The notes: generated by a model not told the origin, from the sequence alone. 32,000 bases of DNA from Demequinaceae bacterium (GCA_965250005.1 OZ252279.1:1770001-1802000); one strand, 5' to 3'; positions 1,440 to 21,831 are shown, numbered from the stretch's first letter. Numbers and translations: made by a program.

Positions 1440-1637
1440 TCACCATCGATCGAGACGAGCACGCCACCGCGCCCAGCCGACTCGTGCTGCGACCATTGCG
1501 GCCGCGATGAGAAGCAGCCACGGCCATACCTGCGCGACCAAGCTCGCGCCGAGCCACAGCAACCAACAAGCAACGGCTACGCGGGCGGCGCCATAAACGA
1601 TCCGGCGCGTGAGCGCTTCGGTTTCGTTCACGATCAC
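1440..1637 (-). CDS. Small membrane protein (65 aa, two hydrophobic spans)
   Basis: The GTG start forms a GTGA overlap with the stop of the upstream methyltransferase gene. Hydrophobic stretch VAVACWLLWLGASLVAQVWPWLLLIAAAMVAA. Confidence 0.5.
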   Translation of the reverse strand: MIVNETEALTRRIVYGAARVAVACWLLWLGASLVAQVWPWLLLIAAAMVAARVGWARWRARLDRW

Positions 1638-2197
1638 TCACCACCGACTCCTCGTGTTGCTGGCGCATCGGGCACGGGGAAGCCAACGAGATCAACGTCG
1701 GAGTGAATCTCGTTGCCCCACACCTGCCAGCCCGCCCGTGGGCGTCTGGCGAACAGCTCCAGATACGGGCCATCGGAGACCCGCTCGATGATGTCGTGTA
1801 CTTCCTCGGGTTTGTGGGAGTGCTCTTGGACCGGTGCAAACAGCCACGTGCCTTGGCCGCGGTAGCGCACGGGTGCCTTTCCGCGAGTGCCGAGCATCAC
1901 GTGCTCGGTCATGTTCCGCAAATACGGCCCGAGACCAAGGCGCGGCTTCACCCACGTCAGCAGCGACCGGTACTCGAACCCCCACGCCTCCAACACTTCT
2001 TTGCCATACGGGACGGTGGCGTTGGTGACCCACAGCCAACAATGCGCATCATCGGCGACGTGCCGGTCGAGGGCGACGCCCAGTTTCTTGATTGATTCGA
2101 GTGACATCGTCCGGTAGTGGTTCTCACCGGACTGTCCCTGCCACGGTGGGTCCGCGAGGATAGTTCTGTACTTGGTTGGTGTCATAGTTGCCTCCAT
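1634..2197 (-). CDS. MT-A70 family N6-adenine DNA methyltransferase (orphan)
   Basis: Catalytic DPPW motif in KYRTILADPPWQGQSGENHY, followed by CWLWVTN and HSHKPEE. The ORF-track version (to 2569) adds an Arg-rich, non-coding-looking extension. Likely starts are ATG 2197 or ATG 2185, the latter preceded by GGAGG with 5-nt spacing. Confidence 0.9.
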   Translation of the reverse strand: MEATMTPTKYRTILADPPWQGQSGENHYRTMSLESIKKLGVALDRHVADDAHCWLWVTNATVPYGKEVLEAWGFEYRSLLTWVKPRLGLGPYLRNMTEHVMLGTRGKAPVRYRGQGTWLFAPVQEHSHKPEEVHDIIERVSDGPYLELFARRPRAGWQVWGNEIHSDVDLVGFPVPDAPATRGVGGE

Positions 2198-2276
2198 TCG
2201 CCGCCGATCCTTAGTAGCTGGGTGTATGTCCAACTGGCGGTCTCCTGAGTGAAAAGCAGATCTACATATGCGGCAA

Positions 2277-2312
2277 CTGTCCGGTCGCTCAGCACCTCGA
2301 GCGACCGGACAG
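2277..2312 (-). repeat. Perfect 14-bp inverted repeat (hairpin, 8-nt loop) between two operon genes
   Basis: CTGTCCGGTCGCTC-agcacctc-GAGCGACCGGACAG. No U-tract follows on the transcribed (minus) strand, so it is either an attenuator/processing hairpin or a protein-binding site. Confidence 0.5.
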
Positions 2313-2372
2313 ATGCCACGCCATGTGCGGACTGCGAGACCGGACACGGAAGGGTGCGTTGTGAAATGAACA

Positions 2373-2639
2373 TCACTTGCTCTGTCGCGTCCGGTTCTTG
2401 GCCGCTTCGAACGAGGCTCGCAATAGCGCCCGCCGGGCCTTATGTGCCCCGAGCGAGAGCTCAGATGAGCGCGCCTCGAAGCGCCGCCGAATCTCAACCT
2501 CCTGGGCGGCAATCTCTCGCTCCAGTCGCTCCCGTTCGACGCTCCGGCGCTTCCGGTACCAATCCTCAAACCAGACTGCGCTGATGATCAGGACGAGCCA
2601 GAGAACGAGAACGACGAGCGAAGCAAGATCCGAATCCAT
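2373..2639 (-). CDS. Small membrane-anchored coiled-coil protein
   Basis: N-terminal TM helix LASLVVLVLWLVLIISAVWF followed by a charged helical region (RERLEREIAAQEVEIRRRFE). ATG 2639 is preceded by GAGG at 8 nt. It overlaps or abuts the stop of the upstream gene (2642). Confidence 0.5.
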   Translation of the reverse strand: MDSDLASLVVLVLWLVLIISAVWFEDWYRKRRSVERERLEREIAAQEVEIRRRFEARSSELSLGAHKARRALLRASFEAAKNRTRQSK

Positions 2640-2989: not shown

Positions 2990-3039
2990 CGCGTCTCGAT
3001 GACAGTTCGACGGTATGAATTTAGGCAAGCGGCCAGCAA

Positions 3040-3072
3040 GCATAAGCGTGATAGCACTGCACGCATAAGCGT
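3040..3072. promoter_or_regulatory. Two direct copies of GCATAAGCGT spaced 23 bp apart in a divergent intergenic region
   Basis: GCATAAGCGT occurs at 3040-3049 and 3063-3072. It is followed by GTCCGG...CCGGAC (3071-3104) enclosing the palindrome TCAGTCTGA. Candidate regulator or recombinase binding sites. Confidence 0.25.
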
Positions 3073-3106
3073 CCGGATCGAGAGGTCAGTCTGATAGACC
3101 GGACAC

Positions 3107-3451
3107 ATGAACGCGAAGGACGACGCGGCACCACAGCAGGAGAGCAAGGGCGCCAGGCGATACCCCGAGCACCTCATGTTCTTCGGTGGTAGCCATGTGC
3201 CCGTCGATCCCGAATTCGCTCGACGACGCGAAGAGTTCCTGCTCGACTTCGCGTACAGCACTGCAAGGGCCTATTGGGCTGACCTGCAGAGTTTCTACGA
3301 GTGGTGCGCCGCGGACTCGTTGGACTGGAGTTCGGTCGGCATTCTCGAACTTGATGGCTGGAGCGATTGCCTGAACTCGGATGGATATAGCGCGGGGGCA
3401 GTACGGCGTCGAGTTTCTGTCGCGAGGCGTTTCCTGCGTGTGCTTACATGA
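3107..3451 (+). pseudogene. Tyrosine recombinase remnant: N-terminal SAM-like/core-binding domain only
   Basis: EEFLLDFAYSTARAYWADLQSFYEWCAADSLDWSSVGILELDGWSDCLNSDGYSAGAVRRRVSVARRFLRVL matches the phage-integrase N-terminal SAM-like pattern. The ORF stops after 114 aa, and no catalytic R..HxxR..Y domain follows in any frame. Confidence 0.55.
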
Positions 3452-3557
3452 CGCCCTCGCCCGTCTGGCTGGGGCCTTTAGATTCAGCGCGCGCTGTTGC
3501 CGATTGGCACGTAGCCTCGGACCTGAACCGAGTTTCAGCGATTGTGAGAGGGCTTTC

Positions 3558-4754
3558 ATGCAGGTGCGCGTTTGCGTAATTGGAGCCGGGCCTGCTGGTT
3601 TGGCTTGTGGTGCGGCATTGAGTGAACTTGGGGTCGACCACGTAGTTCTCGAGGCTGGGGCAGCTGATCGCGAAGGCGAATTCTTGACCGGGCTCGGCGG
3701 CGCGGGCCTGTACTCCGATGGCAAGTTCTCATTTCGGCCGGCGGCTTCAAACCTGTGGGAGCTACGCCCGGTCGAACACTTGTCCGATGCCTCGCAGTGG
3801 GTTCGCGGCTTGCTCGACGCCCATGGTGTTTCGACAGCGGATTTACTCCAGCATGCGAGTCCCACAGCCCGCGGTCCGGCAACGTTCAAACACTATCCTT
3901 CATTCTATGTGTCGGAGGGTGCGCGCGCTGCGCTCGTAAGCGAGATGGCGGCTGCGGCAAATGTCGCGCTCGAGTCTCGCGTGACGTCAATAGATCGCCG
4001 GGGGACCGTTCGTGGTTGGGAGTTGGAAATCGCCGACGGGCGAAGACTTGAAGCGGACATACTCGTGCTTGGCGCGGGACGTCTATGGAACTCGCTCCTT
4101 ACGCGAACGAACGGCATTCAAGTCAAGGCAGGGCGCGTTGAACTAGGCGTTCGCATTGAGCAGCCTAGCGAGGAATTTGTGTTCAAATCACGTGATTCAC
4201 TGGACCCCAAATGGATCGTTCGTCCGCGCCCCGGGGTTGAGTATCGAACCTTCTGCTGTTGTCGCGACGGCGCGATCGTCGCAGGGAAGATCGGAGGGTC
4301 AACGCTGCTTTCCGGACGAGCTGATTGTCCGCCAACAGGGCGATCCAACGTTGGCCTTGTGGTGCGATACCTCCAACCGTCGAGCGAGTCTTATCAAGCT
4401 CTAGACCGAGCAATGTCACACAGCGTTGCGTTTGAGATTGGTGCGCGCGACGCAAGCAGGGCCTTTGACGCACTGTCGGCACAGTTTTCTGTCAAGGTCG
4501 CACGAGACCTGCAGCAAGCGCTTACAATGCTCGCTTCGGACACGTCTACGGATTTCCAGAATGCGGTATTGCATGGGCCGTGTGTCGAGGGGATTGGGTG
4601 GTACCCCGAAGTTGATAGTCATAGTCTGGAGTTCGCCGGTGGCCACGGCTTTGCAGTTGGTGACGCGACCGGCTTGTTCCGTGGAATCGTCGCCGGCTTG
4701 ATCAGCGGCAGGGTTGCCGCTCTTGCAATTGCGCAAAGAGTTGGTAAAATCTAG
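3558..4754 (+). CDS. FAD-dependent protein of the COG2509 type (uncharacterised flavin dehydrogenase)
   Basis: MQVRVCVIGAGPAGLACG dinucleotide fold at the ATG 3558 start (GAGAGGG upstream). Also GLGGAGLYSDGKF, RTFCCCRDGAIVAG and FAVGDATGLFRGIVAGLISG. The ORF-track start at 3381 overlaps the integrase remnant and looks non-coding. Confidence 0.85.
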   Translation: MQVRVCVIGAGPAGLACGAALSELGVDHVVLEAGAADREGEFLTGLGGAGLYSDGKFSFRPAASNLWELRPVEHLSDASQWVRGLLDAHGVSTADLLQHASPTARGPATFKHYPSFYVSEGARAALVSEMAAAANVALESRVTSIDRRGTVRGWELEIADGRRLEADILVLGAGRLWNSLLTRTNGIQVKAGRVELGVRIEQPSEEFVFKSRDSLDPKWIVRPRPGVEYRTFCCCRDGAIVAGKIGGSTLLSGRADCPPTGRSNVGLVVRYLQPSSESYQALDRAMSHSVAFEIGARDASRAFDALSAQFSVKVARDLQQALTMLASDTSTDFQNAVLHGPCVEGIGWYPEVDSHSLEFAGGHGFAVGDATGLFRGIVAGLISGRVAALAIAQRVGKI

Positions 4755-4759
4755 GAGAG

Positions 4760-5215
4760 ATGGAGATCGTCACTATGGAGCCTGATTGGCCACTCATATA
4801 TCCGGCGCAGTCAAAGATGCATTTCTTTTGTCGTGACGCTGTTTGCCAGTTCGTATTGGAGCGTCGAGCCGTTCCGTTGCACCCATTCCGAATGTTCGAC
4901 TACTTCCTAGGAGACCGCGTTGACCGAGACATCGTGCGAAATGCGAACAACTCTGTGGTTTCTCGCGTTGATGAGATATGGGTATTTGGACAGGAAATCG
5001 CGGATGGAGTACTCGCGGAGATCGATCTAGCAAACGCCTCGGGCAAGCCGGTAAAGTTTTTCTCGATTGCAACCCGGGCTCGCGAGATACGGGAAATCGA
5101 GAAAGACGAACTCAGATTCGAGGCGGAGCTTCGGGCGAAGGCGGGTGAGGACGTCTCTGGACTCCACGACGTCGTTCGTGGCGCGCGCCGGCTCTCCACA
5201 GTGCTGGCGCCGTAA
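4760..5215 (+). CDS. Flavodoxin-like protein resembling nucleoside 2-deoxyribosyltransferase-like / TIR-like (DUF4406/DUF1863-type) domains
   Basis: It starts 5 nt after the previous stop, behind AGGAGAG (alternative ATG at 4775). Pattern LIYPAQS...VVSRVDEIWVFGQEIADGVLAEIDLANASGKPVKFFSI. Assignment is by pattern only. Confidence 0.65.
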   Translation: MEIVTMEPDWPLIYPAQSKMHFFCRDAVCQFVLERRAVPLHPFRMFDYFLGDRVDRDIVRNANNSVVSRVDEIWVFGQEIADGVLAEIDLANASGKPVKFFSIATRAREIREIEKDELRFEAELRAKAGEDVSGLHDVVRGARRLSTVLAP

Positions 5216-5221
5216 GCCCCC

Positions 5222-7063
5222 GTGGAGCACATCGGAGGTCCGATCTACTGTCAGTTCCTCGATCGCGAAATGGCTGAGTCAGTCTCGTTTCCGCAGGCAA
5301 CTGCCACGACACTGCTGTTACTCCGGGACGCAATCATGGCGAGTGAGGGCGGCGCATACTGCAGTCTTTCAGCACTTGGAGAAAACCTGGTGCTCCAGAG
5401 ACTCCCCGGGGAGATCCTCGATGGTGTGCTGAGGTCTGGGCAGTTGGAAACGGTCAGCGACGTGCCAAGCGGCGAAGAGTTCTTGTGGACGAGGAGACAG
5501 CTCTACCGCGACGACAAGGAACGGTATCCGGCCTACTTCGAGCAGGCGCCGCGAGAGCTGGCCGACGAACTGTGGGCACCATCCTTCGTGAAGGCGTCGA
5601 GCTCAACCGAGGCGCTCGACCGCTCGCTGCGCCAGAGCGGCTCGTTCACGTCTCTCGGCGCCGAGGCCGGAGTTTTTGCCCCGCAGGACTACGTCGAACG
5701 TGCGGAAGAAATCCTGGATGACCGCGACGGACGTGCCATCACCTACGCTCTATTTCGAGACATGTTTGGGGCCTCGTCGCTTGATGGCCCCGTCGGCCCG
5801 ATGGTAGTCAGACGTGCGATTTCGGCCGCCTATGGACGTCACCTAGTCGAAGTACGCGCGGGGAACGTTCTCACCGGAATCCCGCGCCTGCAGATCTACG
5901 ATCGTCACCTCGCGTTCGAGTCGAGCGGTATAGGCATTCCGCGCAGGCTCGTTGAGCTTCTGTTGGCACCGCTTGTGCGGTTGAATGCGCGTCTGAAGCA
6001 TGGTGACGTTTCTGCATGGTCAGATTTGGTGTCCTTCAGAGAAGGCCCAAGTGGAGCGGAATTCGCGTATTGCGTGGCATCAGTGGTTCGTCACGTCGTG
6101 TCCGAGCCAGACCGTTGGGGCGAAGCATCGGTCGAGATGCGGGCCCTTCGGCTTGGTCGCGAACTGCTCAAATCCTTCAGAAACGGAGACAACCTCCAAG
6201 ACCACGTACTGCTGTTGGCAGATGCGGTTCGGTCTAGCGATGGCCGGGGTCCAAGGCGAGCTTCAACGTCGCGCAGCAGCAAAGTGTTGATCTGCTACGT
6301 CAACGACAATGAGTATGAGGGCATTCTTGACGGTCTCTCGATCCCTCGCGATGCACTTCCCGAGGTAGATCTCAATGGTCGCGTGTCCATCCAACCGGTC
6401 GGGCGCCATGCAGGTGCCGATCTCTTCATGGTTCAGAGCGAGGCGGGCTCGGTAGGCGCGTCTGCGGCTCAGTTGGTGACGGTAGATGCCATCGATGCCG
6501 TAAAGCCCGACTTCGTCGTGGCGGTCGGAATTGCTTTCGGCCTGAAATACAAGATCGCCCCAGGCACCGTCCTGGTTTCGACCATGGCTCGCTCGTACGA
6601 GCGCGTTAGGATGGGGTCGCGCGCTGACGGCTCGCTCGAGCTTCGAGAGAGAGATCAGCCGCAGCCAGTCGACGCGGTGCTCCTCAATCAAGTGAGGCTC
6701 GTCGCGAAGCGAAACCAGATTCCCGTCGCATTCGGCGAGATGCTCAGCGGCGAGAAGCTGGTCGACCATCCGGAGTTTCGCGCGTCTCTGATCGAGCGCT
6801 TCCCAGATGCGATTGGCGGTGAGATGGAAGCCACCGGGATTGCGGGGGCGGCGGCACGGCGCCGAGTGCCGTGGCTGATGTTCAAGGGCTTGAGCGACTA
6901 TGGAGACGGAAAAAAGAAGTCGAGTGAGCGATCCGGTGTCGTGCCTCTAGTCTCGCAACGTGAGGCCGCCGCAAACGGTGCTCGATTGCTGCTTTCACAC
7001 CTGCAAACTCGGAGTCGATCGGCGCAAGAGCCACAGGCGAGCATAGAGAGGATCTCGGAGTGA
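5222..7063 (+). CDS. Fusion protein: ~340-aa unknown N-terminal domain plus C-terminal PNP_UDP-type phosphorylase/nucleosidase domain
   Basis: The C-terminal part has KVLICYVNDNEYEGILDGL, AVGIAFGL, GGEMEATGIAGAAARRRVPWLMFKGLSDYGDGKKK (E534-M-E536). This matches the nucleoside phosphorylase / MTA-nucleosidase superfamily clade seen in conflict systems. GTG 5222 start (alternative ATG about 5270). Confidence 0.85.
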   Translation: MEHIGGPIYCQFLDREMAESVSFPQATATTLLLLRDAIMASEGGAYCSLSALGENLVLQRLPGEILDGVLRSGQLETVSDVPSGEEFLWTRRQLYRDDKERYPAYFEQAPRELADELWAPSFVKASSSTEALDRSLRQSGSFTSLGAEAGVFAPQDYVERAEEILDDRDGRAITYALFRDMFGASSLDGPVGPMVVRRAISAAYGRHLVEVRAGNVLTGIPRLQIYDRHLAFESSGIGIPRRLVELLLAPLVRLNARLKHGDVSAWSDLVSFREGPSGAEFAYCVASVVRHVVSEPDRWGEASVEMRALRLGRELLKSFRNGDNLQDHVLLLADAVRSSDGRGPRRASTSRSSKVLICYVNDNEYEGILDGLSIPRDALPEVDLNGRVSIQPVGRHAGADLFMVQSEAGSVGASAAQLVTVDAIDAVKPDFVVAVGIAFGLKYKIAPGTVLVSTMARSYERVRMGSRADGSLELRERDQPQPVDAVLLNQVRLVAKRNQIPVAFGEMLSGEKLVDHPEFRASLIERFPDAIGGEMEATGIAGAAARRRVPWLMFKGLSDYGDGKKKSSERSGVVPLVSQREAAANGARLLLSHLQTRSRSAQEPQASIERISE

Positions 7064-7614
7064 TCGTCGTATTTGCTGGCAACCGGCCGGACGAGTCCGG
7101 TATTGAGGAGCGGCTCATCCGGTTTCCGGCGTCTGCGGAAACTGCTGTCGCGACGACAATCCATAGAGTGCTGCGCAAGATCCGGCCCGCAGAAGTCGTC
7201 GGTGGCGCGTCGAGCGGAGCGGACACACTCTTCCTTGAGGCGGCCACTCGGTTGGGGATCCCTCGAAGGGTTGTGTTGCCCTTCGCAGCCGACGAATACC
7301 TGAAGGCGGCGGTCAAGCCCTCAGGGGCGTTGTGGGTCGAGCGCGCGATGCGGATGCTTGCGTCGCGCGACACGACTGTGACTGTGCACGACGATGGTAC
7401 GCGCGACCGAAGCGCATTCTTAAAGGGGAACTTGGCGCTGATTTCGAAGGCGGTCGAGCGAGCTGAGTCTCAGTCCGTCGAACCGATCGCTGTTGTGGTT
7501 CGGCATCTCAATGGAGCGAAGCGTTCGGTCTCTGATGAGTTCGTCGACGAGGCCGTCGCTCGCGGGCTTCGAGTTATTTGCGTCGATCCGATGGTGTGCC
7601 TGCATACTGGGTAG
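7060..7614 (+). CDS. SLOG-superfamily (YpsA/DUF2493/DprA-like) Rossmannoid protein
   Basis: GTGA start/stop overlap with the upstream gene. IVVFAGNRPD then VVGGASSGADTLFLEAATRLGIPRRVVLPF (G48 onward) then IAVVVRHLNG...ARGLRVICV. This is the GGxxGxD signature of SLOG-type ligand-binding domains. Confidence 0.75.
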   Translation: MIVVFAGNRPDESGIEERLIRFPASAETAVATTIHRVLRKIRPAEVVGGASSGADTLFLEAATRLGIPRRVVLPFAADEYLKAAVKPSGALWVERAMRMLASRDTTVTVHDDGTRDRSAFLKGNLALISKAVERAESQSVEPIAVVVRHLNGAKRSVSDEFVDEAVARGLRVICVDPMVCLHTG

Positions 7615-7674
7615 GCGCTCCTCGCAGGGAAGAAACCGAGCTGCGAAGCAATGTGCCTGGGACCCGAAGGTGAA

Positions 7675-7712
7675 GTAGGCGGCCGCCTACTACGGCCCGG
7701 AGTCTCCTCCGG
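7675..7712. terminator. Bidirectional terminator candidate between convergent genes
   Basis: Perfect 16-bp palindrome GTAGGCGGCCGCCTAC (7675-7690) followed by the hairpin CCGGAG-tctc-CTCCGG (7697-7712). Confidence 0.5.
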
Positions 7713-7738
7713 CCGCAGCAAGCAACCCGCGTGTAGAC

Positions 7739-8068
7739 CTACTCCTTCCGTGGCTTCCCGATGTTCACCGGGGTGCTCGGTTTTTTCGGCGCTCTAGCGT
7801 CGAAGATGGCCGAGATTGCGTTGCGCTTAGTTGTTGCCTCGCGCTCGATCTGGTCGCGCACGAGTTCCGCGCGCTGCAGGACCGACGGATCGGACTTGCT
7901 CTTCTTGATCCACGCCTCAAGTGCGAATCGGATCTCCTCAGTGACCGAACGGTCATTGAGTTGAGCAATGATGTCCAGCTGTGCCCGCAGATCCTCTCGG
8001 ATCCGCACGGCCAGCGTCTTGATCCCATCGCTTCCGTTGGGGTAGGTCGAAGATGACTTCTCAACCAT
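7739..8068 (-). CDS. Ribbon-helix-helix (CopG/Arc-like) DNA-binding protein
   Basis: KTLAVRIREDLRAQLDIIAQLNDRSVTEEIRFALEAWI is a beta-strand/helix/helix RHH pattern. AGGAGG lies 8 nt upstream of ATG 8068. Confidence 0.8.
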   Translation of the reverse strand: MVEKSSSTYPNGSDGIKTLAVRIREDLRAQLDIIAQLNDRSVTEEIRFALEAWIKKSKSDPSVLQRAELVRDQIEREATTKRNAISAIFDARAPKKPSTPVNIGKPRKE

Positions 8069-8100
8069 GATGGATACCTCCTTGGTGTAGTGCGGCCGGC

Positions 8101-8117
8101 GAACTGACGATCAGTTC
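8101..8117. promoter_or_regulatory. Palindromic operator candidate upstream of the RHH gene
   Basis: GAACTGA-cga-TCAGTTC lies 33 nt upstream of the RHH start, in the divergent region shared with the 8377 gene. Confidence 0.4.
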
Positions 8118-8376
8118 CCCAAAGAATCAAAACCGCATGCCACCAAGGACCCATTCATAGGAGCCTGTCACCATGCCGAGCGCATCAACGCTAACGAGGG
8201 CAGCGCGCTCAAGGCACATCCTGAGTGAAGCGCAACCAACACAACGCGTCAACCGTCCGGTCGCTACCTCGTGGAGCGATCGGACGGCGCAGATAAGGGG
8301 CTATAGGGAGTCGTCGTCAGGTACAGCGACTCGGTGCTTGCGTTTTGAGTCGCGATGGTTCATAACTAGATGCATC

Positions 8377-9573
8377 ATGACGATCCCCGAAGAGATCCAG
8401 AGAGTCCAGGAACTTTCGCGCTCGATGATCGCAAGTTACGTTGCGTGGGGCACGAACAGGAAGTGGGGGGAGACGCAGAACACCTTCTACTCTGATGTGA
8501 CCGACTTTGTGAACTTCCGGATCGAGACTGCGGATTCTTGCCTCGATCTGATTGCCAACGGCAAGGTTGCCGACGCCCTGGGTCTTTGTCGGTCACTCCT
8601 CGAGCACAATCTCCTGCTGAAGTTGATCTGTCGCGGAGATCGCTACGTCCGACTTCAGAACCTGGAGTCCAAGTCGCCTACTGAGATTCGCAACTACCTT
8701 GCCGAGCAGCAGCGGGATCTGGAGCAGAAGCACGCCCGAGGCGAGGATCTCGCGTGCTTGTATGTCGAGGAGTACCCACGTCAGAAGAAGTGTCTGATGT
8801 ACGTCTTCGAGGGACTCTCGAGTAACGATGAGCCTGACTTCAGGATCCCGATCCACTTCTTCCAATTCCAGGGTTTCCGGCCCTCAACCATGCGCTTGAA
8901 AGATGAAGAGTACTTCGACTACTACGAGCCGCCGAAGTCGGTAACGGAAGCCAAGGCGCGATTTCGTCGTGAAGCCGCGTTCAGTTACCGCCACTACCTC
9001 TCGTACGACGCCTTACTCCAGTGCTTGCAGATCAACGGCCTTGTGGACTCCGCCTCGTTGGCTCGTATTGAGGCGCACTACACGTTCCTCGGATCGTTCT
9101 TGCACCCCACGCATGGAGCCGCACGCGAGCTTCATGAGGGCAGCAACGTACACTCCGCGGATACGGCCGTTGGAATGGAGGGCCGCTACACCGTTGCGGC
9201 CAAGCTCCTGGCCTATTGCTATGTTGCATTCTTGTTGGCTGGCACTCTCGAAGAAGTTGCGCTCCTATTCGAAGAGGCTCCGGAACGGTATGTGTCGGTA
9301 GCCGCGACTGCGGACCTCAGTGCCCTCGCCGGGAGCGTGCCCGACACCGTCAACTACTTTTGGTTCGTCGACAACGAAGCCCCGCTCTACGACCGCTTCA
9401 ACCACGCCATACATCACGTCTCGGGCGACGAGCTCACCGCCTATGGCGGCTACGCAGGTGTGCCCACAGAAGCGATCAAGTTTGAGGCCGACGTCTACTC
9501 AAGTTTCGAGCACCGACTAACCGGCTGGCATAACCAGAGTGTCGGGCGCTACGAGGCTCCGCTGGGGCATTGA
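8377..9573 (+). CDS. Hypothetical 398-aa protein, possible HEPN-like/DUF5677-like N-terminal domain
   Basis: Long coding-like frame. N-terminal helix pair ...ADSCLDLIANGKVADALGLCRSLLEHNLLLKLI contains RSLLEH (RxxxxH). The start is uncertain. ATG 8377 has no SD. ATG 8173 has AGGAG 9 nt upstream, but the extra 68 codons are rich in AGG/ATA/AGA. Confidence 0.65.
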   Translation: MTIPEEIQRVQELSRSMIASYVAWGTNRKWGETQNTFYSDVTDFVNFRIETADSCLDLIANGKVADALGLCRSLLEHNLLLKLICRGDRYVRLQNLESKSPTEIRNYLAEQQRDLEQKHARGEDLACLYVEEYPRQKKCLMYVFEGLSSNDEPDFRIPIHFFQFQGFRPSTMRLKDEEYFDYYEPPKSVTEAKARFRREAAFSYRHYLSYDALLQCLQINGLVDSASLARIEAHYTFLGSFLHPTHGAARELHEGSNVHSADTAVGMEGRYTVAAKLLAYCYVAFLLAGTLEEVALLFEEAPERYVSVAATADLSALAGSVPDTVNYFWFVDNEAPLYDRFNHAIHHVSGDELTAYGGYAGVPTEAIKFEADVYSSFEHRLTGWHNQSVGRYEAPLGH

Positions 9574-9678
9574 TGCCCTGGGCTCGGTTGGGACGACCCA
9601 ATAGATGCACCGGGCGCTCAGGGGATACCGGTTGGGCCCGGCACCTTGCCGCCCGGATGGAGTCCGAAATCGGGGCCT

Positions 9679-10353
9679 TCAGGAATAGCCATCAACGAGT
9701 CGCGAGACGACGTCCTCGTCGATTGACCACTTGTGGCTGGAATTGCGCGAGCAAAGCGCGAGGAACTCCCACTTTGTCGGGATCCGCTCGACCGAACCGT
9801 CCGCGTTCGAGTGCTCGTTGAACTGCACGGGAATCCGAACGAATCGGAGCGTGCGCTTCTTCTTGCACCTGGGGCATATGGCCTGAGTTCGAACTAGGCG
9901 TAAGTGGTGGGAATCCGAGCCCCCAAGATGGCGGTGTTGTGTGAACCGCCCTGTTGAGATCGGTATCCCTTCGTCGCGGGCTCGACGGAAGAGTATGAGC
10001 GATCCGAGCGCGATGAGACAGAGTACGAGAAAGGCAAGCATCCAGGGCCATGCCGTGGGAACAGGTAACAGGGCAATACCGGTCCCCGACGATGGCCTAC
10101 CAAGGCCTGCGAAGAACTCTGAAACTGTCTTCCACCCGCTGAAGACTCCACCCGAGACGGTCACGATGGCCGCTGCGAGAAACCACCATGCGTTCGGCCC
10201 AAGGTTTCGGTCGTTTTCTATCGTAACCTGGCCGGGCGGGATCGGAGGCAGGCCTCCGGTACTACCGACCTTGATCTTGTTGACGATGCGCGTTCTCGAC
10301 TTCTTGCCGAAGGCGTTGTTCGAAACATTTCCGTGCCCTTCAATGCTCGTCAT
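9679..10353 (-). CDS. Membrane protein (two or three TM helices) with a C-terminal CxxC-containing cytoplasmic domain
   Basis: ATG 10353 is preceded by GGGAGA at 5 nt. TM spans are WWFLAAAIVTVSGGVFSGW and WPWMLAFLVLCLIALGSLILF. The C-terminal part has AICPRCKKKRTLRFVRIP...LCSRNSSHKW. Confidence 0.65.
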   Translation of the reverse strand: MTSIEGHGNVSNNAFGKKSRTRIVNKIKVGSTGGLPPIPPGQVTIENDRNLGPNAWWFLAAAIVTVSGGVFSGWKTVSEFFAGLGRPSSGTGIALLPVPTAWPWMLAFLVLCLIALGSLILFRRARDEGIPISTGRFTQHRHLGGSDSHHLRLVRTQAICPRCKKKRTLRFVRIPVQFNEHSNADGSVERIPTKWEFLALCSRNSSHKWSIDEDVVSRLVDGYS

Positions 10354-10601
10354 CTCAGTCTCCCGTCGACTTGGCCCCACTCTAGATGGAGGCGCTGACA
10401 CGGAGTCGAGATTGTCCGCGTTGCAGTTAGTCGAAGATTCTGAAGCGAGGCCTCTGCTTCGCCGCGCGCCGCTCGTGTTGGCTAACTAGGCTGGGTGCAG
10501 TCTCGACTACCAAGTGGCGAGAAAGTGGGGTTTGAAGTGACACAAGGTGCGTTGTCGCCGCGATCGGGTCGTGTCGTGAATCTCAAGCGCTGGGCTGCTG
10601 C

Positions 10602-11144
10602 ATGACTTCGGCGAGCCCCGACTTGGCAGCGCTCTACGTGAAGCATGGTGACATGCTTCACCGGGTTGCTGCCGCTACCTTGCGTGGTAGTGGGCGTGTG
10701 GAAGACTCCAGAGATGTCGTTCACGATGCTTTTGAGGAAGTACTCAAGGGCAACGTGCCCGACGAGGTTCGGGATTGGAAGGCGTTCTTGATCACGGTCG
10801 TCAAAAGGCGAGCGCTCGACCGTGTGAAATCTGCGGCGGTGCGAAAGGCGGGACCGAGTCTTGATGCGGACACACTAGTGCCGGTAGCCAGTGACGATCT
10901 TGCTGAAGCGGTGGCTGCCGAGTTAGATGCGGAGCGACGTGCGCAACAGGTTCGTGAGGCACTGGCTGTGTTGGACGCCCGTCAACGGAAGGTCGTCGAG
11001 GCGTTCGTCTTCGAAGAACGCAAACAGGCCGATATCGCGGCTGAACTCGGTGTGAATCGATCCAGAGTGAGTCAACTATTTGGTGAGGCAAAGATGCTAA
11101 TAGACGAAGAGTTGGCGCGGAAGAAGGCGATTGGACATGGATAG
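10602..11144 (+). CDS. Sigma-70 family (ECF-like) RNA polymerase sigma factor
   Basis: Region 2-like LYVKHGDMLHRVAAATLRGSGRVEDSRDVVHDAFEEV...FLITVVKRRALD. Region 4 HTH LDARQRKVVEAFVFEERKQADIAAELGVNRSRVSQLF. Confidence 0.85.
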   Translation: MTSASPDLAALYVKHGDMLHRVAAATLRGSGRVEDSRDVVHDAFEEVLKGNVPDEVRDWKAFLITVVKRRALDRVKSAAVRKAGPSLDADTLVPVASDDLAEAVAAELDAERRAQQVREALAVLDARQRKVVEAFVFEERKQADIAAELGVNRSRVSQLFGEAKMLIDEELARKKAIGHG

Positions 11145-11796
11145 AGTCGAGTTTGACGATCTGGTCTTCGAGGTCGCGCGTGACCCGGGTTCGTTTGAGC
11201 GATTGTCCGGTTCCGGCGAACTTGCCGCAGCGCAGAAGGAAGCGCTGGCCGAGGCGCGCGAGCTTTCGCTTGCGCTCCGCCAGGCTGCGTATGGCGCCCC
11301 GCCGCTTTCGGAAGACCCCACTGCGGCTTTGCTCGGGCTCGTGCCGGATGCGCACTGCAAATTGGATGGAAAGGCGTTGCACCGTGCGCGCATGCAAGCA
11401 GAGTTGTCAGTATCAGAGTTGGCGCTTCGACTAGGAGCGCGCGAATGGCAAGTTGACAAGCGGGACGTTGCAAGGTGGGAGAGCCGTACGGCGGACGACG
11501 TTTCGCCGGCCCTTGTTGCAGCAGTAGCCGAAACGATCGGCGCGTCGGTCGACGACTTGATTTTGGATCCTGCGGCGGCGGCTCCTGACCCATTCGTTGA
11601 CGCACTGCGGCAGAATCCCGTCTTTGCGCAAGCCGTGGAGCGTTGGGCGGCCTTGCGCAACGTGTCGAAGGCTGTCGCGGCTGCAATGCTCGAGAGCAAG
11701 GCGCTTGTCACGGTGCACCGTGGCGAGGCGCCCGATGTCGAAAAAGCGGCGAAGTCTCTTGAAGCTTTGGTCAATGCCATCGAGGATGAGCAGTAG
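11137..11796 (+). CDS. XRE-type helix-turn-helix protein
   Basis: ATGGATAG overlap with the sigma gene stop. HTH LDGKALHRARMQAELSVSELALRLGAREWQVDKRDVARWESR. The long antisense ORFs here (11072..11686, 11097..11942) are shadows. Confidence 0.75.
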   Translation: MDRVEFDDLVFEVARDPGSFERLSGSGELAAAQKEALAEARELSLALRQAAYGAPPLSEDPTAALLGLVPDAHCKLDGKALHRARMQAELSVSELALRLGAREWQVDKRDVARWESRTADDVSPALVAAVAETIGASVDDLILDPAAAAPDPFVDALRQNPVFAQAVERWAALRNVSKAVAAAMLESKALVTVHRGEAPDVEKAAKSLEALVNAIEDEQ

Positions 11797-11808: not shown

Positions 11809-12825
11809 TTGGACTTGGATGCGCGAGCGGAGGCTGTCGTCGCGCGACTAGGCGACGACGCGGTCAACCGATTTGGGGCAGACCCAAGCGCGGCGCTCAT
11901 TGCCGACTTCGGGCTCATCGTCCGTTCGGTCGACCACCTCACTGACTCGCGCGGCGCTGGCGGCGAGTGCGACGGGCTTTCTTACCTCGAAGACGGTGTA
12001 ATCCTCTACGCACCGACCCCGAATAGCAAGCGCGAGAACTTCACCCTCGCACATGAATTCGGGCACTTCCTCGTCGAAAAGGACATTGCGCTGTTTGATT
12101 GGATTGCCGATCAAGTTGCGGCAGGCATGATCCTTGAACAGGTCTGCAATCGCATTGCACAAAGACTTCTCCTCGACGATGCGAGGGTCAAGTCAGTCGT
12201 TGGAACGGGCCAATTGAGAGCTATCCACGTTCTCGAACTCTTTGAAGCAACCCGCGCCAGCCGTCCAGTCTGCGCAATCGCGCTTGCAGGTCGGCTTCGA
12301 GGACTCGGGGCAGTCGCAATTCTCGAGCGGGCCGATGGTTCAGTAACTCACTCCACTGTCCAGCCCGATGTCGAGCAAGGCTGGCCTGAGGTCTTCCCAT
12401 GGCGCGGACAGAGCGTGTCCGGTGACCATCCGCTCACAAAGTTAAATGAAGGCGGCTCGCTGACGCAACGCCTTTCCTGGCGTTCACCTTGGGGAACGTC
12501 GGCTGACTTCTACGTCGATGCGATCGCCGACGCGCGCCGCGTATATGCAGTGTTCAGCGAGATCGACCTCTGGAAGGTCGACAAGTTCCACGGGTCGAAG
12601 AAACGCGATTATGACCAGCGCCTCCACCTCTCGGGAACGTGCTGCGGACAAGCGTTCTCGGTACGGGGGTACCCGTGCGACACATGCAAGCAACCGTATT
12701 GTCCACGCTGCGGCGACTGCCGCTGTGGTCGTGATGCGAAACGAAGCCTTACGTGCAGGGGTTGCCAGTACGTCTTCCTGTCCCATTTGCTGATCGACGG
12801 CCGATGCGAAGAGTGCCGAGGTTAG
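11809..12825 (+). CDS. ImmA/IrrE-family (M78, DUF955) zinc metallopeptidase with a Cys-rich C-terminal tail
   Basis: HEXXH in NFTLAHEFGHFLVEKD. TTG start with AGGAGA 8 nt upstream. The last ~70 aa hold about 12 Cys: TCCGQAFSVRGYPCDTCKQPYCPRCGDCRCGRD...CRGCQYVF...GRCEECRG. Confidence 0.85.
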   Translation: MDLDARAEAVVARLGDDAVNRFGADPSAALIADFGLIVRSVDHLTDSRGAGGECDGLSYLEDGVILYAPTPNSKRENFTLAHEFGHFLVEKDIALFDWIADQVAAGMILEQVCNRIAQRLLLDDARVKSVVGTGQLRAIHVLELFEATRASRPVCAIALAGRLRGLGAVAILERADGSVTHSTVQPDVEQGWPEVFPWRGQSVSGDHPLTKLNEGGSLTQRLSWRSPWGTSADFYVDAIADARRVYAVFSEIDLWKVDKFHGSKKRDYDQRLHLSGTCCGQAFSVRGYPCDTCKQPYCPRCGDCRCGRDAKRSLTCRGCQYVFLSHLLIDGRCEECRG

Positions 12826-13142: not shown

Positions 13143-13182
13143 TGGATATTGAGACAAGTTGTCCCAAAAAAGGAGTAGTTCA

Positions 13183-13431
13183 ATGGCAGACAAGAAACAC
13201 AACAAGACGTTCAAGGTTTTCGTGAATGGCGTCGAGAAGACAGTCGATCACGAGTTTCTGACCTATGACGAGGTGGTGCAGCTTTTCATCGCGGAGCCTG
13301 TTCCCAACACCATTTACGCGGTGAGTTTCGAGCACGCTAAGGAGCCAAAAGAAGGAGATTTGGTGGCCGGTCAGCGAGTGAAAATCAAGCAGAACACGAA
13401 ATTCGATGTCGATGACACTGGTCGCTCATAG
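13183..13431 (+). CDS. Ubiquitin-like beta-grasp protein of the multiubiquitin type (82 aa)
   Basis: AGGAG 8 nt upstream of ATG 13183. KTFKVFVNGVEKTVDHEFLTYDEVVQLFIAEPVPNTIYAVSFEH...DLVAGQRVKIKQNTKFDVDDTGRS matches my memory of the Multi_ubiq domain. It sits immediately upstream of an E1-like gene. Confidence 0.75.
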   Translation: MADKKHNKTFKVFVNGVEKTVDHEFLTYDEVVQLFIAEPVPNTIYAVSFEHAKEPKEGDLVAGQRVKIKQNTKFDVDDTGRS

Positions 13432-14578
13432 TCCGGATCTCGCGAAACTCGTTGACGAAGGCTATGACGTAGAGGTTCGCGATGGCAATCTCCTAGTGCA
13501 CCACGTTCCTTATGTGACAGGTGCTGGCCAGGTCGCCTATTGCATTCTTGTGTCAGAGTTGTCGACCGACGGCCACAAGACAGTTGCGCCAGGGAGTCAC
13601 CAGGCCTGGGTCGTTGGGGATATCCCGCACGATCACCAAGGGAACAAGGTCACGATCGTTCTGGACCAGAAACATGACTACGGCGGGGGTCTCGTAGCTT
13701 CATGCAGCCTCTCAGGAAAACCTGGCAACAAGATGCCTCGCAACTACCACCACAAGATCAGTCACTATGTCGACCGTCTCGGTCGATATGCGAGAGCGAT
13801 CGACCGTTCCGCTACCCACAAGAACTACCCAGCCCGTGAAACATCGGAAGAGGAGTCAGTTTTTCGCTATCATGATGCGGCGACGAGCCGAGCTGGTCTA
13901 AGTGCTGTTTCCGGCAAACTCAAGGTGGCAAAGGTGGCTATTGTTGGCCTCGGTGGCACTGGTTCGTACATCCTTGATCTTATCGCAAAGACACCAATTG
14001 AAGAGATCCATTTGTTTGATGATGATGTGCTCTACGCGCACAACGCCTTCCGGGCACCGGGAGCTGTGTCTCTTGATGAACTCAAAATGTCGCCTCTCAA
14101 GGTTGACTATTTTGCTGGTAAGTACGGCGAGCTCAGGCGCAACATCACTGCTTACCCAGTGCGAGTCAGCGACCATAATGTTGACGACCTTCGCGATATG
14201 GACTTCGTCTTTCTGGCTATGGATGCAGGCCCAACCAAGCGGTTGATTGTTGAAAAACTTCAAAGTTGGGCGACTCCGTTTGTCGATTGCGGGATGGGCG
14301 TTGAACGCCTCGGCAACTCGCTTCGAGGGACGCTCCGAGTGACGGCTGGGGCCGAAGGAAAATACGACCACTTGCCGCGTCGAATCTCGTACACTGACGT
14401 CGATGCAGATGAGTACGACTGGAACATTCAGACGGCGGACCTCAACATGATGAACGCTGCTATGGCTGTTCTCAAGTGGAAGAAACTCCTTGGCTACTAC
14501 GTCGACGGCAAAGGCGAACTCAACAGCACCTACGTTGTTGCGAGGAATCAATTGAACAGCGGCGAACTATCCGTATGA
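13406..14578 (+). CDS. E2-like N-terminal domain fused to a ThiF/E1-type adenylyltransferase
   Basis: E1 part: KVAIVGLGGTGSYILDLIAKTPIEEIHLFDDDVLYAHNAFRAPG (nt ~13934 onward). N-terminal part: LLVHHVPYVTGAGQVAYCILVSEL (Cys46 at 13541-13543), reminiscent of the UBC HPN...G.IC.L motif. The start overlaps the Ubl gene by 20-26 nt. Confidence 0.9.
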   Translation: MSMTLVAHSPDLAKLVDEGYDVEVRDGNLLVHHVPYVTGAGQVAYCILVSELSTDGHKTVAPGSHQAWVVGDIPHDHQGNKVTIVLDQKHDYGGGLVASCSLSGKPGNKMPRNYHHKISHYVDRLGRYARAIDRSATHKNYPARETSEEESVFRYHDAATSRAGLSAVSGKLKVAKVAIVGLGGTGSYILDLIAKTPIEEIHLFDDDVLYAHNAFRAPGAVSLDELKMSPLKVDYFAGKYGELRRNITAYPVRVSDHNVDDLRDMDFVFLAMDAGPTKRLIVEKLQSWATPFVDCGMGVERLGNSLRGTLRVTAGAEGKYDHLPRRISYTDVDADEYDWNIQTADLNMMNAAMAVLKWKKLLGYYVDGKGELNSTYVVARNQLNSGELSV

Positions 14579-14994
14579 AGCAAACTTCGCTTGTCCCAGA
14601 GTTTGTAAACACTATTCCCGAGGAACTTGAGGAAGGCCTACTCTACGTATCGGAGCGGTTTAGTACCGCGTCTCATCTATGCGCATGCGGTTGCGGCAGC
14701 AAGGTCGTAACCCCACTTAAGCCAACGAAGTGGCAGTTGACAAGTGATGATGGACTTGTGTCACTGTGGCCGTCCATCGGCCGGTGGCAACTCCCGTGCA
14801 AGTCTCACTACTGGATTAGAGAGAACAAAGTCGAATGGTCCTGGTCCTTCACTGAAGATGAGATGCGGGCCGTGCTAGAGCGAGATGCGCGTGACCTTCA
14901 TAACTACTACGAGTCACGACGTACGCCGCGTTGGATTCCGAGTCTTCTTGCACCGTTGTGGCGACGATGGCTTGGTCGCGCAAGAGAACGCTAG
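14575..14994 (+). CDS. DUF6527-like Cys/His-rich small protein (139 aa)
   Basis: ATGA start/stop overlap with the E1 gene. LLYVSERFSTASHLCACGCGSKVVTPL...WPSIGRWQLPCKSHYWI. The ORF-track start (14476) lies inside the E1 gene. Confidence 0.8.
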   Translation: MKQTSLVPEFVNTIPEELEEGLLYVSERFSTASHLCACGCGSKVVTPLKPTKWQLTSDDGLVSLWPSIGRWQLPCKSHYWIRENKVEWSWSFTEDEMRAVLERDARDLHNYYESRRTPRWIPSLLAPLWRRWLGRARER

Positions 14995-16308: not shown

Positions 16309-17772
16309 TTGGAAGATCTCTATTTCTCAGATCAGTTCGGTCTGGACCCGGCAGTGCTCGACTCGTATGGAGCATTCGACATCAGCCTTGTTTCGGATCT
16401 CCCTCTGTTCATTGACCCATTCTTGCTATTTCACAGCCCCAAGCCTGAGTACCACGAGTTGCACGCAGGCATCATCACGTATCTCAGATTCCTGCGTGAT
16501 AAGGCAGGCGATGACCTTGCTCCCGGTTTGATCGACCAGTGGTATCGGTTCGGGGAGGTCGAGCAGAACTGGCTTGGCTTCACGTTCCTAGGAAACAAGG
16601 GGCACGGCTTGGGTCGCGGTTTCGCGACGGCTCTCAATGAATCTCTCCATCGGGTGCTGACGAATTTCGGCTCTGAAGAGATCACCAAGGGCAGTCACCT
16701 TGAGAAGCTGGCGCTGATCAAGCCCGGCGTCGGGCGTGACAGCATTAGTGACTTCGCGACGAACCTGATCAAGGGATACCTGCTTGATTACACCCAAGAG
16801 TTCGCGAGCAGACATCTCGATGATGACAAGTGCGAAGAGTTTGCCGTCGAGCGAGCAGTGTTTAACTACACGACTCAAGCCTGGGAAACGCGTACCTATC
16901 GCTTGCCTTCAGCAAGAGACGACTATGTTTTGTTGACTCCGGTGGACATGTTGACGCGCGATGACACGTGGATTAGTCACAGTGACATGATCGGCAATTT
17001 CCACAAGATTCCTCCCGCGGTTTCTGACGAACAGTTGCGGGCAAAGGTGAACAACTACTTCGCATCGCGGCTCGGGGACAAACCGACCAAGAAGGATTCC
17101 GAACGAGCTGCCCAGCGGACAATTCTCGAGTTTCCCGAGTTGATCGACATTTACATTCGCAGCCGTGAGGATGACGGCGATCGGGCTGTCGGATTCAGCA
17201 GCGCTCGTCGCGATGAGACCAAACACGTGCTCGTCGGGATGGTCAAGAAGTTGGTCAGCGATCTGTCGAGCCGTACCGATCTCCTATCAGGTGCACTGAC
17301 GAGCTACGACGAAGCATTTCGACTTGTTCATGGCTTTAAGCAATACATCGAGAACCAAGATGGGTATCGTCTGATCAACCGAGATGGAAACGAGAAGCCA
17401 TTTTCAAACGAGTCAGATGTCCAATTGTTCTTCGGACTCACGTTCTTGGCAACAAGATTTGACTTGAATCGCGAGCCGAACAACGGTCGCGGTCCGGTCG
17501 ACTTCAAGGTCAGTGAAGGAGCATTCGACAAGTCACTGATTGAGTTCAAATTGGCAAGCAACACGCAACTTAAGCGCAATCTCCAGAAGCAGGTTCAAAT
17601 CTACGAGGCAGCGAACCAGACTCGTTCGTCGGTCAAGGTGATCATCTTCTACACCCAGCAGGAACAGGAAAAGGTCCAACGGATTCTCTCTGATCTGAAA
17701 CTTACAGGCGAAGAGTCCATCGTCGTCATTGACGCTCGCGCAGACAACAAGCCAAGCGCATCAAAGGCGTGA
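16309..17772 (+). CDS. Large protein with a C-terminal PD-(D/E)xK nuclease motif
   Basis: TTG start behind AGGAGGAGG. The C-terminal part has NESDVQLFF (E368/D370), GRGPVDFKV (D398) and SLIEFKL (E412-x-K414). The N-terminal ~350 aa (FDISLVSDLPLFIDPFLLFHSP...) is unassigned. Confidence 0.8.
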   Translation: MEDLYFSDQFGLDPAVLDSYGAFDISLVSDLPLFIDPFLLFHSPKPEYHELHAGIITYLRFLRDKAGDDLAPGLIDQWYRFGEVEQNWLGFTFLGNKGHGLGRGFATALNESLHRVLTNFGSEEITKGSHLEKLALIKPGVGRDSISDFATNLIKGYLLDYTQEFASRHLDDDKCEEFAVERAVFNYTTQAWETRTYRLPSARDDYVLLTPVDMLTRDDTWISHSDMIGNFHKIPPAVSDEQLRAKVNNYFASRLGDKPTKKDSERAAQRTILEFPELIDIYIRSREDDGDRAVGFSSARRDETKHVLVGMVKKLVSDLSSRTDLLSGALTSYDEAFRLVHGFKQYIENQDGYRLINRDGNEKPFSNESDVQLFFGLTFLATRFDLNREPNNGRGPVDFKVSEGAFDKSLIEFKLASNTQLKRNLQKQVQIYEAANQTRSSVKVIIFYTQQEQEKVQRILSDLKLTGEESIVVIDARADNKPSASKA

Positions 17773-19430: not shown

Positions 19431-19449
19431 GAACTAAACCCAGGCCAAA

Positions 19450-21767: not shown

Positions 21768-21831
21768 GATTATTCCTCCAATTAGATGTACGAAAAGAGC
21801 CTAGCGCACGGTTCAAGGGAGCGGGAGGCGG

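Follow-up and report, generated by a model that had tools for sequence, protein, structure and literature searches.

What do the four closely spaced genes at positions 3558-7614 of a 32,000-nucleotide stretch of a Demequinaceae bacterium genome (GCA_965250005.1 OZ252279.1:1770001-1802000; hereafter the window) do for their host? A first-pass annotation, made from the sequence alone, had described them as a cassette of a flavoprotein, a nucleoside 2'-deoxyribosyltransferase (NDT)-like protein, a nucleosidase and a SLOG-domain protein, and had proposed an undescribed conflict or signalling system. We refer to the four proteins, in order, as P1 to P4, to P1-P2-P3 as the triad and to the N-terminal domain of P3 as the N-domain; L-numbers denote surveyed loci and P0-numbers database proteins. 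Our analyses indicated that the proposal was right in spirit, and we consider the triad to be an undescribed three-gene conflict system, most likely anti-phage and of the abortive-infection type, with a probability of roughly 0.6. The unnamed conflict system formed by P1 to P3 was retained from the proposal, and the SLOG gene as one of its components was not. Among the underlying observations, three of the domain calls stood and the SLOG call was marginal; the position of a P2 motif and the conservation of all four genes did not hold. The cassette is laid out as follows.

3558-4754, plus strand: P1, 398-aa flavin adenine dinucleotide (FAD)-dependent protein of the COG2509 / VP0956 type
4760-5215, plus strand: P2, 151-aa DUF7768 protein with a predicted NDT-like (nucleoside 2-deoxyribosyltransferase / DNPH1 / MilB) fold
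5222-7063, plus strand: P3 as a whole, N-domain plus PNP_UDP_1 nucleosidase domain
5222-6256, plus strand: N-domain of P3, about aa 1-345, no Pfam family
6257-7063, plus strand: C-terminal PNP_UDP_1 domain of P3 (Pfam PF01048), MTAN-like
7060-7614, plus strand: P4, 184-aa orphan open reading frame (ORF), putatively YAcAr/SLOG-like

The four same-strand ORFs had been described as one operon, and their coordinates, spacings and overlap were all verified. P1 and P2 are separated by a 5-nt spacer (TAG-GAGAG-ATG) and P2 and P3 by a 6-nt spacer (TAA-GCCCCC-GTG), and a GTGA start/stop overlap at 7060-7063 couples translation of P4 to that of P3. A ribosome-binding site, GAGAGGG, lies 6 nt ahead of the P1 ATG at 3558, a start that was favoured over a longer ORF from 3381 because homologues begin just ahead of the GxGxxG motif. 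In the public annotation P2 has just 107 aa (P0005); the N-terminal block PLVYxAQSKxxFxCRDAV is conserved, which supported the 151-aa ORF as the real gene. Every motif quoted in the first-pass annotation was found in the translations, and its residue numbers for P3 (E534/E536) and P4 (G48-D55) were correct. Scanning 3000-8300 for promoters and terminators gave a number of sites not above that in shuffled sequence.

Is the arrangement peculiar to this genome? A whole-protein search with P3 returned three relatives only, and two of these, on a TARA Oceans and a JGI contig, lay in loci with FAD, DUF7768 and PNP genes in the same order. Wider surveys found the triad order kept in at least 50 loci, with identities of only 25–40% for P1 and P3. 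In a survey anchored on P2, with one genome per species and 80 loci, P1 and an N-domain protein accompanied P2 at 27 loci, with PNP fused to the N-domain at all of these except two, and at a further two loci the N-domain protein lay at a contig edge; five had a P1-P2 fusion without P3, and 46 had P2 alone. The gene order of the window was found in nearly all these triads, one of which (L007) is arranged P1-P3-P2. A second survey, anchored on the N-domain, covered 71 metagenome loci. Upstream sequence of 2.5 kb or more was available for 38 metagenome or viral loci; P1 and P2 were present in 25 of them, and nine of the other 13 belonged to one human-gut subgroup. Of the 85 P2 genes with genomic context, 29 are fused to P1; a fusion of P2 to P3 was seen once (L023). 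The order conserved across phyla and the frequent P1-P2 fusions make the triad more than a chance association, and the expectation that homologues would recur as a cassette in unrelated genomes held for P1-P2-P3, some copies of which lie beside known defence genes.

The distribution of the triad is patchy and spans at least seven phyla (Actinomycetota, Alphaproteobacteria, Bacteroidota, Bacillota, Chloroflexota, Acidobacteriota and Armatimonadota). Actinomycete carriers were Nocardia, Micromonospora, Streptomyces, Kribbella, Microlunatus, Phytohabitans, Glycomyces, Mycobacterium, Amycolatopsis and Actinosynnema; others were Pseudolabrys, Hyphomicrobium, Bacteroidota, Armatimonadota, Chloroflexota, Acidobacteriota and Clostridia. 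A complete triad was present on one IMG/VR viral contig (L083). On plasmids, neither tblastn of P3 against PLSDB nor megablast of 3000-8200 gave a match, and tblastn of P2 against phages gave a single distant match, annotated as NDT. P2 itself is rare yet widespread, forming 94 clusters at 50-69% identity. Nearly all of the solo P2 genes (44 of 46) group contiguously in a neighbour-joining tree, as a sister clade without P1 or P3 (within L037-L082); their hosts are mostly candidate phyla radiation (CPR)/Patescibacteria, Chlamydiota, gammaproteobacterial metagenome-assembled genomes and archaea, and several adjoin a Nudix hydrolase gene. A variant in Bacillota (L014, L016, L018, L028, L039) consists of a small membrane protein, then a DCD-like (dCTP-deaminase-like, PF22769) protein with a hydrophobic, apparently transmembrane C-terminal end, then a P1-P2 fusion; no N-domain/PNP gene was found at these loci.

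In P3, the PNP_UDP_1 domain (PF01048) was recognized by Pfam at E 7.8e-16, and the C-terminus matched the methylthioadenosine/S-adenosylhomocysteine nucleosidase (MTAN) structure 6po4 at E 5e-12, with GGEMEA and LSDYGDG aligned to EMEAT and ISDGGDG of MTAN. Foldseek searches with the P3 model also returned MTAN structures (E about 1e-14, TMt about 0.83). Equivalents of the MTAN catalytic residues Glu12, Glu174 (EME) and Asp197 (SD) were sought in 86 sequences; E364, M535-E536 and D559 were invariant, and G532-G533 and E534 were nearly so. Pfam, MTAN structures and conserved catalytic residues thus agreed with the earlier call of a PNP_UDP-type domain, and the C-terminus of P3 is, as judged from these alignments, a PNP_UDP_1 / MTAN-like nucleosidase domain with its catalytic residues intact. 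In PADLOC 2.0, P3 matched the 'PN-superfamily' effector model of the cyclic oligonucleotide-based anti-phage signalling system (CBASS) at E 6.3e-15 and, in its PNP region, PDC-M60C at E 2.8e-6. In CBASS (Cap17) and Detocs, PNP domains of this type have been proven to act as ATP/dATP nucleosidase effectors, and they also occur in operons that were then undescribed (bioRxiv 10.1101/2023.01.24.525353).

The first ~340 residues of P3, which the first-pass annotation had missed, are probably its key regulatory part. The N-domain is mostly helical with a small β-sheet, carries many conserved Arg, Tyr, Asp and Glu residues, and has the conserved motifs YLHFLDRE, SxxWE, EFxxSRxxLYxHDxxRYPxYF, TT, AITxxLF and RRxIS. 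The full-length P3 model had a mean predicted local distance difference test (pLDDT) score of 88.5, with most 10-residue blocks of the N-domain at 70-96. Pfam scanning of 26 P3 homologues recognized only the PNP domain, and an N-domain profile (A7) had no match among PDB sequences. Foldseek with the full model gave PDB matches that were mostly PNP, and none to the N-domain in BFVD. Based on these searches, the N-domain is probably a new domain, which we propose to be a ligand sensor or regulator.

A HMMER scan of 1.84 billion representatives found 209 proteins with this domain, and in 108 of the top 149 representatives it is fused to PNP. In other relatives the C-terminal part is replaced: by TIR_2 (P0205, P0210, P0218), by the adaptor domain EAD1 (P0165, P0206), by a multi-pass transmembrane tail (P0249), or by CAP12/pycTIR at L146, where P1 and P2 still lie upstream, and at L135, where P2 does. 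Such exchange of effectors (PNP, TIR_2, CAP12/pycTIR, EAD1, transmembrane tails) on a constant domain is typical of immune systems.

Two further arrangements of the N-domain were observed. Contigs of the human-gut metagenome type (L144, L148-L152, L154-L156, L158) encode an N-domain joined to CAP12/pycTIR and lack P1 and P2 within 7 kb of it. Downstream come two small conserved genes (~160 and ~133 aa) with the motifs GSFRK…G.TT.EIG and SGSMQF…GANTFAEIA. Profile searches and hhalign found no significant relationship of these two genes to NDT, and the likeness is at the motif level. Loci L085 and L117 each have an N-domain-PNP gene, without P1 or P2, adjoining a Dam-like (DPPY) DNA methyltransferase.

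The genomic surroundings of the triads were scanned with PADLOC and Pfam, using 89 immediate neighbours of 29 triads and a raw tally. PADLOC identified a type I methyltransferase, LmuA/LmuB, mad2, a ThsA-STALD protein, PDC-M46A/B, PDC-M62A/B and PDC-S07, and Pfam identified DUF4231. A guanylate-kinase domain was matched in two of the 89 proteins. In the window, the cassette genes have a GC content at third codon positions (GC3) of 0.58-0.70, lower than the 0.77-0.82 of the core genes metG and tatD, and the cassette therefore looks horizontally acquired. Together with an integrase fragment and nearby insertion sequence (IS) elements, the low GC3 bore out the suggestion that the cassette sits on mobile DNA after an integrase remnant. 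The surrounding island also carries an MT-A70 methyltransferase, a helix-turn-helix protein with a CapP-like peptidase, a type II Bub operon and a PDC-M36A-like gene, and we count this company in favour of a conflict role.

What would the other two triad proteins contribute? For P2, the match to DUF7768 (PF24963) had an E value of 3.5e-11, and a sequence profile gave no match in the PDB. The AlphaFold2 model (pLDDT 93.5) had as its top PDB matches in Foldseek nucleoside 2'-deoxyribosyltransferases (8pqq, 2a0k, 6qai), DNPH1 and MilB/BcmB, with E from 4e-4, probability 1.0 and a template-modelling (TM) score of about 0.5; ThsB2 was a weaker neighbour (E 0.013). Nine residues are invariant (S18 K19 R25 Y48 R60 N63 W74 E87 E121), and D82-G83-V84-x-x-E87, located where NDTs bear their nucleophilic Glu, is invariant or nearly so. 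The modelled fold thus places P2 in the NDT / DNPH1 / MilB superfamily, with enzymatic activity as a prediction, and the earlier NDT-like assignment was borne out by this fold and by the conserved Glu of the D-x-G-x-x-x-E type. The motif said to end P2 is internal, at aa 70-101 of 151. Invariant S18, K19, R25 and R60 suggest that the substrate may be phosphorylated. P2 is the most conserved gene of the triad, with 59% identity to the TARA copy versus 33% for P1 and 31% for P3. We found no paper that mentions DUF7768.

P1 had only generic FAD Rossmann-type matches in Pfam. A profile of 25 P1-family members (A2) matched the VP0956 structure 3nlc over its full length at E 1.4e-22, in two stretches spanning residues 109-541, and the aligned motifs included GGAGxFSDGK and FCxCxxG; the N-terminal GxGxxG is also present. 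The motifs and this match supported the earlier assignment of P1 as a COG2509-type flavoprotein with the FAD-binding fold. PF21688 was found in five of the 25 family members and was not matched by the P1 of the window. P1 differs from VP0956 in being shorter by an N-terminal extension of ~100 residues, in being dedicated to the triad and in its frequent fusion to DUF7768. For the function of COG2509 we found no paper; the literature searched names it in passing only.

The fold of P2 also raises the question of whether the triad makes a nucleoside-derived metabolite, of a nucleoside-antibiotic-like or cytokinin-like kind, by analogy with the cytidine monophosphate hydrolases MilB, BcmB and BlsM of actinomycete pathways. 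In addition to the MilB and BcmB matches, many triads are found in Actinomycetota, including Streptomyces, Micromonospora and Amycolatopsis, and an FAD oxidoreductase fused to a glycosidase-type enzyme would resemble tailoring chemistry. However, we saw no conservation of further genes for biosynthesis, resistance or export in the surroundings of the triad, which is found in Bacteroidota, Bacillota and Alphaproteobacteria as well, and the TIR and EAD1 variants speak against such a pathway, which we consider very improbable.

Does the triad correspond to a system that already has a name? PADLOC 2.0 gave single-protein matches only for the cassette, with no match at the level of a system, and we found no paper on this gene combination, in agreement with the first-pass proposal of an unnamed system. 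Papers of the Aravind group on EAD, PNPase and TIR domains do not mention an FAD- or NDT-containing system; Burroughs 2015, on 'nucleotide-centric systems', may hold an earlier mention. By Pfam and PADLOC, P1-P4 contain no CD-NTase and no SAVED/TPALS/STING-type sensor of CBASS. The HisKA, HATPase and Response_reg domains of Detocs were not matched, the N-domain having no Pfam match, and PADLOC found neither ThsA nor ThsB of Thoeris among P1-P4, P2 being nearer to NDT than to TIR. Of the PDC-M60 components only PDC-M60C was matched, by P3, which is explained by the shared PNP domain; P1, P2 and P4 matched none.

The likenesses are in parts. P3 shares with Cap17 and DtcC a C-terminal PNP_UDP_1 domain with conserved catalytic residues and an N-terminal regulatory domain, and the killing domain is exchangeable in relatives. 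In contrast to those proteins, it is encoded without a CD-NTase, histidine kinase, receiver, TPALS or SAVED, its N-domain is a new family, and the genes upstream of it encode a flavoprotein and an NDT-like protein. The proposed logic would resemble Thoeris in pairing a small glycosidase-fold enzyme with a protein that has ligand-sensing and NAD/nucleotide-degrading domains; ThsB2 is among the fold neighbours of P2, and some N-domain relatives bear TIR effectors. Unlike Thoeris, the cassette has no SLOG/STALD or Macro sensor, and its obligatory flavoprotein has no Thoeris counterpart. Retron effectors with NDT-like domains (Mestre et al. 2020, PMC7736814) likewise place an NDT-fold protein in an anti-phage setting. 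The cassette differs in that no reverse transcriptase gene was found in it, in that P2 belongs to DUF7768 and not to the retron NDT families, and in that P2 has a flavoprotein as its partner, the effector being a protein of its own.

Several observations weigh against reading the triad as a defence system. The absence of a system-level PADLOC match leaves genomic association as the main argument for defence, and many of the scanned neighbours are housekeeping genes (Mur ligases, gyrase, FecCD). Some N-domain genes stand without P1 and P2 nearby (N-domain-PNP at L085, L117 and L122, and the whole gut pycTIR subgroup), which indicates that the P1-P2 and N-domain modules are separable. In the Actinosynnema pretiosum triad, the N-domain protein (L036:10443-11648) has no effector domain, only a His-rich tail, and has ftsW and murG as its immediate neighbours. 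The strong conservation of polar residues in the N-domain could point to an enzyme instead of a sensor. Finally, the solo P2 clade without P1 and P3 indicates that P2 chemistry can serve ordinary metabolism, and this clade may have a housekeeping, nucleotide-sanitising role for the same chemistry.

Another reading is nucleotide or nucleoside catabolism and salvage, of which the first-pass annotation had named nucleoside salvage or modification as the main alternative. The triad would then be a horizontally spread metabolic add-on, in which P3 and P2 free bases from nucleosides or nucleotides and P1 oxidises the sugar or base. All three families have housekeeping members (MTAN, NDT/DNPH1, FAD dehydrogenases), the clade of solo P2 genes belongs to lineages that depend on hosts and rely on salvage, with Nudix genes adjoining in some cases, and housekeeping genes are frequent among the neighbours of the triads. 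Nevertheless, replacing PNP by TIR_2, CAP12/pycTIR, EAD1 or transmembrane tails would be senseless for a salvage enzyme, and we found no conserved transporter, kinase or regulator of nucleoside metabolism near the triads. The distribution is patchy and island-borne, with low GC3, and defence genes adjoin several copies. The TIR and EAD1 variants in particular weakened this alternative, which we regard as unlikely; with the transmembrane variants they are hard to reconcile with either salvage or biosynthesis.

How, then, might a defence system built from P1, P2 and P3 work? By analogy with Cap17 and DtcC, P3 would be the executioner, its PNP/MTAN-type domain breaking ATP/dATP, or a different adenine nucleotide, at the N-glycosidic bond and so starving both phage and cell, and the N-domain would hold the effector off until a signal arrives. 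P1 and P2 would act as a single enzymatic unit, to which P2 would bring the nucleophile-type Glu87 and phosphate-binding-type Lys/Arg. That a constant N-domain with variable killing domains stands beside a constant enzyme pair suggested to us that P1-P2 may be the makers or processors of a ligand. This ligand would be a nucleotide-derived small molecule, e.g., a base-exchanged or oxidised (deoxy)ribosyl compound, which the N-domain would read, releasing PNP activity. The logic would be Thoeris-like, with a glycosidase-fold signal producer and a sensor-effector. What the analyses show is the order and fusion of the genes, the folds, the conservation of catalytic residues, the swapping of effectors and the genomic context; the defence function, ATP as the substrate, the existence and direction of the signal and the protein that would sense infection are what we infer from them.

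We advance this signalling mechanism tentatively, as a possibility of well under even odds. The same holds for its most specific form, in which P1-P2 would synthesise a new nucleotide-derived second messenger, read by a new sensor family that drives PNP, TIR, pycTIR, EAD1-recruited and membrane effectors. Such a messenger might, for instance, be a (deoxy)ribosyl nucleotide with an exchanged base or an oxidised C1', derived from a nucleotide of the host or from one specific to the phage.

The opposite wiring fits the data almost as well. P1-P2 could be a buffer or antidote that silences the P3, TIR or DCD effector for as long as no phage blocks P1-P2, either by destroying a spurious activator or the effector's toxic product (e.g., ribose-5'-triphosphate or dUTP) or by making an inhibitory nucleotide; we consider this arrangement as a whole rather unlikely. 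It would account for the pairing of P1-P2 with unrelated nucleotide-depleting partners (N-domain-PNP, N-domain-pycTIR and the DCD-like membrane protein) and for the existence of N-domain effectors without P1-P2. The much greater conservation of P2 (59% versus 31-33%) would fit an enzyme with a fixed small-molecule substrate. There are also precedents, in the buffer DtcB of Detocs (bioRxiv 10.1101/2023.01.24.525353) and in the activating and inhibiting nucleotide signals of anti-phage defence that are described in PMC12265719. On the other hand, the tight gene order and the fusions suit signal production equally well, and an action of P1-P2 on effector products is a supposition.

If the triad is a defence system, the nucleotide-depleting defences would gain a new upstream module, a flavoenzyme with an NDT-fold glycosidase, and the orphan families COG2509/VP0956 and DUF7768 a first biological role. 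A new sensor domain would be added as well, with effector outputs of at least five kinds. Should the second-messenger reading be true, the triad would represent a new branch of signal-based bacterial immunity; to our knowledge, redox chemistry has hardly been seen in anti-phage signalling. Carriers of the triad include organisms of clinical or industrial interest in which phage resistance matters (Mycobacteroides abscessus, Nocardia, Streptomyces, gut Bacillota and Bacteroidota).

Is P4 part of the system? The first-pass annotation had assigned it a SLOG/YpsA/DUF2493 signature and counted it as one of four nucleotide-directed components. A GGxxGxD-type motif is present and SLOG motifs are visible by eye; the assignment itself was marginal, with the Pfam YAcAr match at E 0.026 and 14.8 bits, below the 28.2-bit cut-off, and BLASTP against the true YAcAr protein of L001 at E 0.039. 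Based on these motifs P4 may have a YAcAr/SLOG-like fold. Among 5.8 billion proteins P4 matched only itself. Searches of 156 fetched loci by phmmer and jackhmmer with P4 and the TARA YAcAr protein matched only L001 and L002, two assemblies of one TARA Oceans locus whose triad is immediately preceded by a true YAcAr gene (E 8e-20). The conserved cassette is thus P1-P2-P3, with P4 an orphan that stands beside no other triad, and the nucleotide-directed character claimed for every component held for P1-P3.

A four-component system, in which P4 would be the true ligand sensor or processor of this copy, nonetheless has points in its favour. P4 is coupled to P3 by the GTGA overlap and has the same GC pattern by codon position as P3, by which P4 looks like a real coding sequence of the same origin as the cassette. 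The GGxxGxD-type motif, the weak YAcAr match and the YAcAr gene of the TARA triad point the same way, and SLOG-type domains (TPALS, STALD) are known partners of PNP and TIR effectors (bioRxiv 10.1101/2023.01.24.525353). Against this, P4 lacked any relative in the protein search, no P4/YAcAr-like gene lay near a triad at the 156 loci other than L001/L002, and the SLOG assignment fell under every curated threshold. YAcAr genes are common on mobile DNA, and the single coincidence with a triad at L001 is therefore not surprising. We judge this composition improbable and treat P4 as a horizontally co-acquired, locus-specific passenger or accessory orphan, possibly SLOG-like, that is not required by the three-gene system and may have a modulating effect on the copy in the window.

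The remaining features of the window in the vicinity of the cassette are as follows.

1634-2569, minus strand: MT-A70 / type II DNA methyltransferase (PADLOC MTase_II, E 6e-45), no restriction enzyme identified alongside
3107-3451, plus strand: truncated integrase ORF, 114 aa, Phage_int_SAM_1 only (Pfam E 3.2e-5)
7675-7690: 16-nt perfect palindrome GTAGGCGGCCGCCTAC, between the end of P4 and the convergent ribbon-helix-helix (RHH)-like gene, without a T-run and missed by the terminator scan
7739-8068, minus strand: RHH-like gene, convergent with the cassette
within 8173-10401: DUF5677-like 466-aa ORF (weak, E 1.3e-4)
within 8173-10401, strand opposite to the DUF5677-like ORF: 240-aa ORF, no database match
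10602-11144: sigma-70-like gene
11131-11796: helix-turn-helix protein
11809-12825: CapP-like M78 peptidase
13159-13431: probable ubiquitin-like (Ubl) ORF
13406-14578: DUF6791-ThiF E2/E1-like protein
14476-14994: DUF6527 protein
16309-17772: 487-aa ORF, no Pfam family, PADLOC candidate PDC-M36A (E 1.6e-18)
18504-20166: two IS3-family (rve) transposase ORFs in opposite orientations

The integrase fragment has the SAM-like N-terminal part only, with no catalytic domain downstream, and is context outside the cassette system. No tRNA was found by a scan of the window. The cassette lies inside a lower-GC island of ~21 kb; the core genes PMT, rsmI, metG, tatD, rpf, ksgA and ispE start from about 21.8 kb, where the GC content climbs from about 0.52-0.62 to 0.64-0.70, and position 21800 or thereabouts is probably the island boundary. 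Within the island, the Ubl, DUF6791-ThiF and DUF6527 genes match the type II 'Bub' (6E) ubiquitination-like operon (bioRxiv 10.1101/2024.11.21.623953), which in the window is apparently under CapH/CapP-type control.

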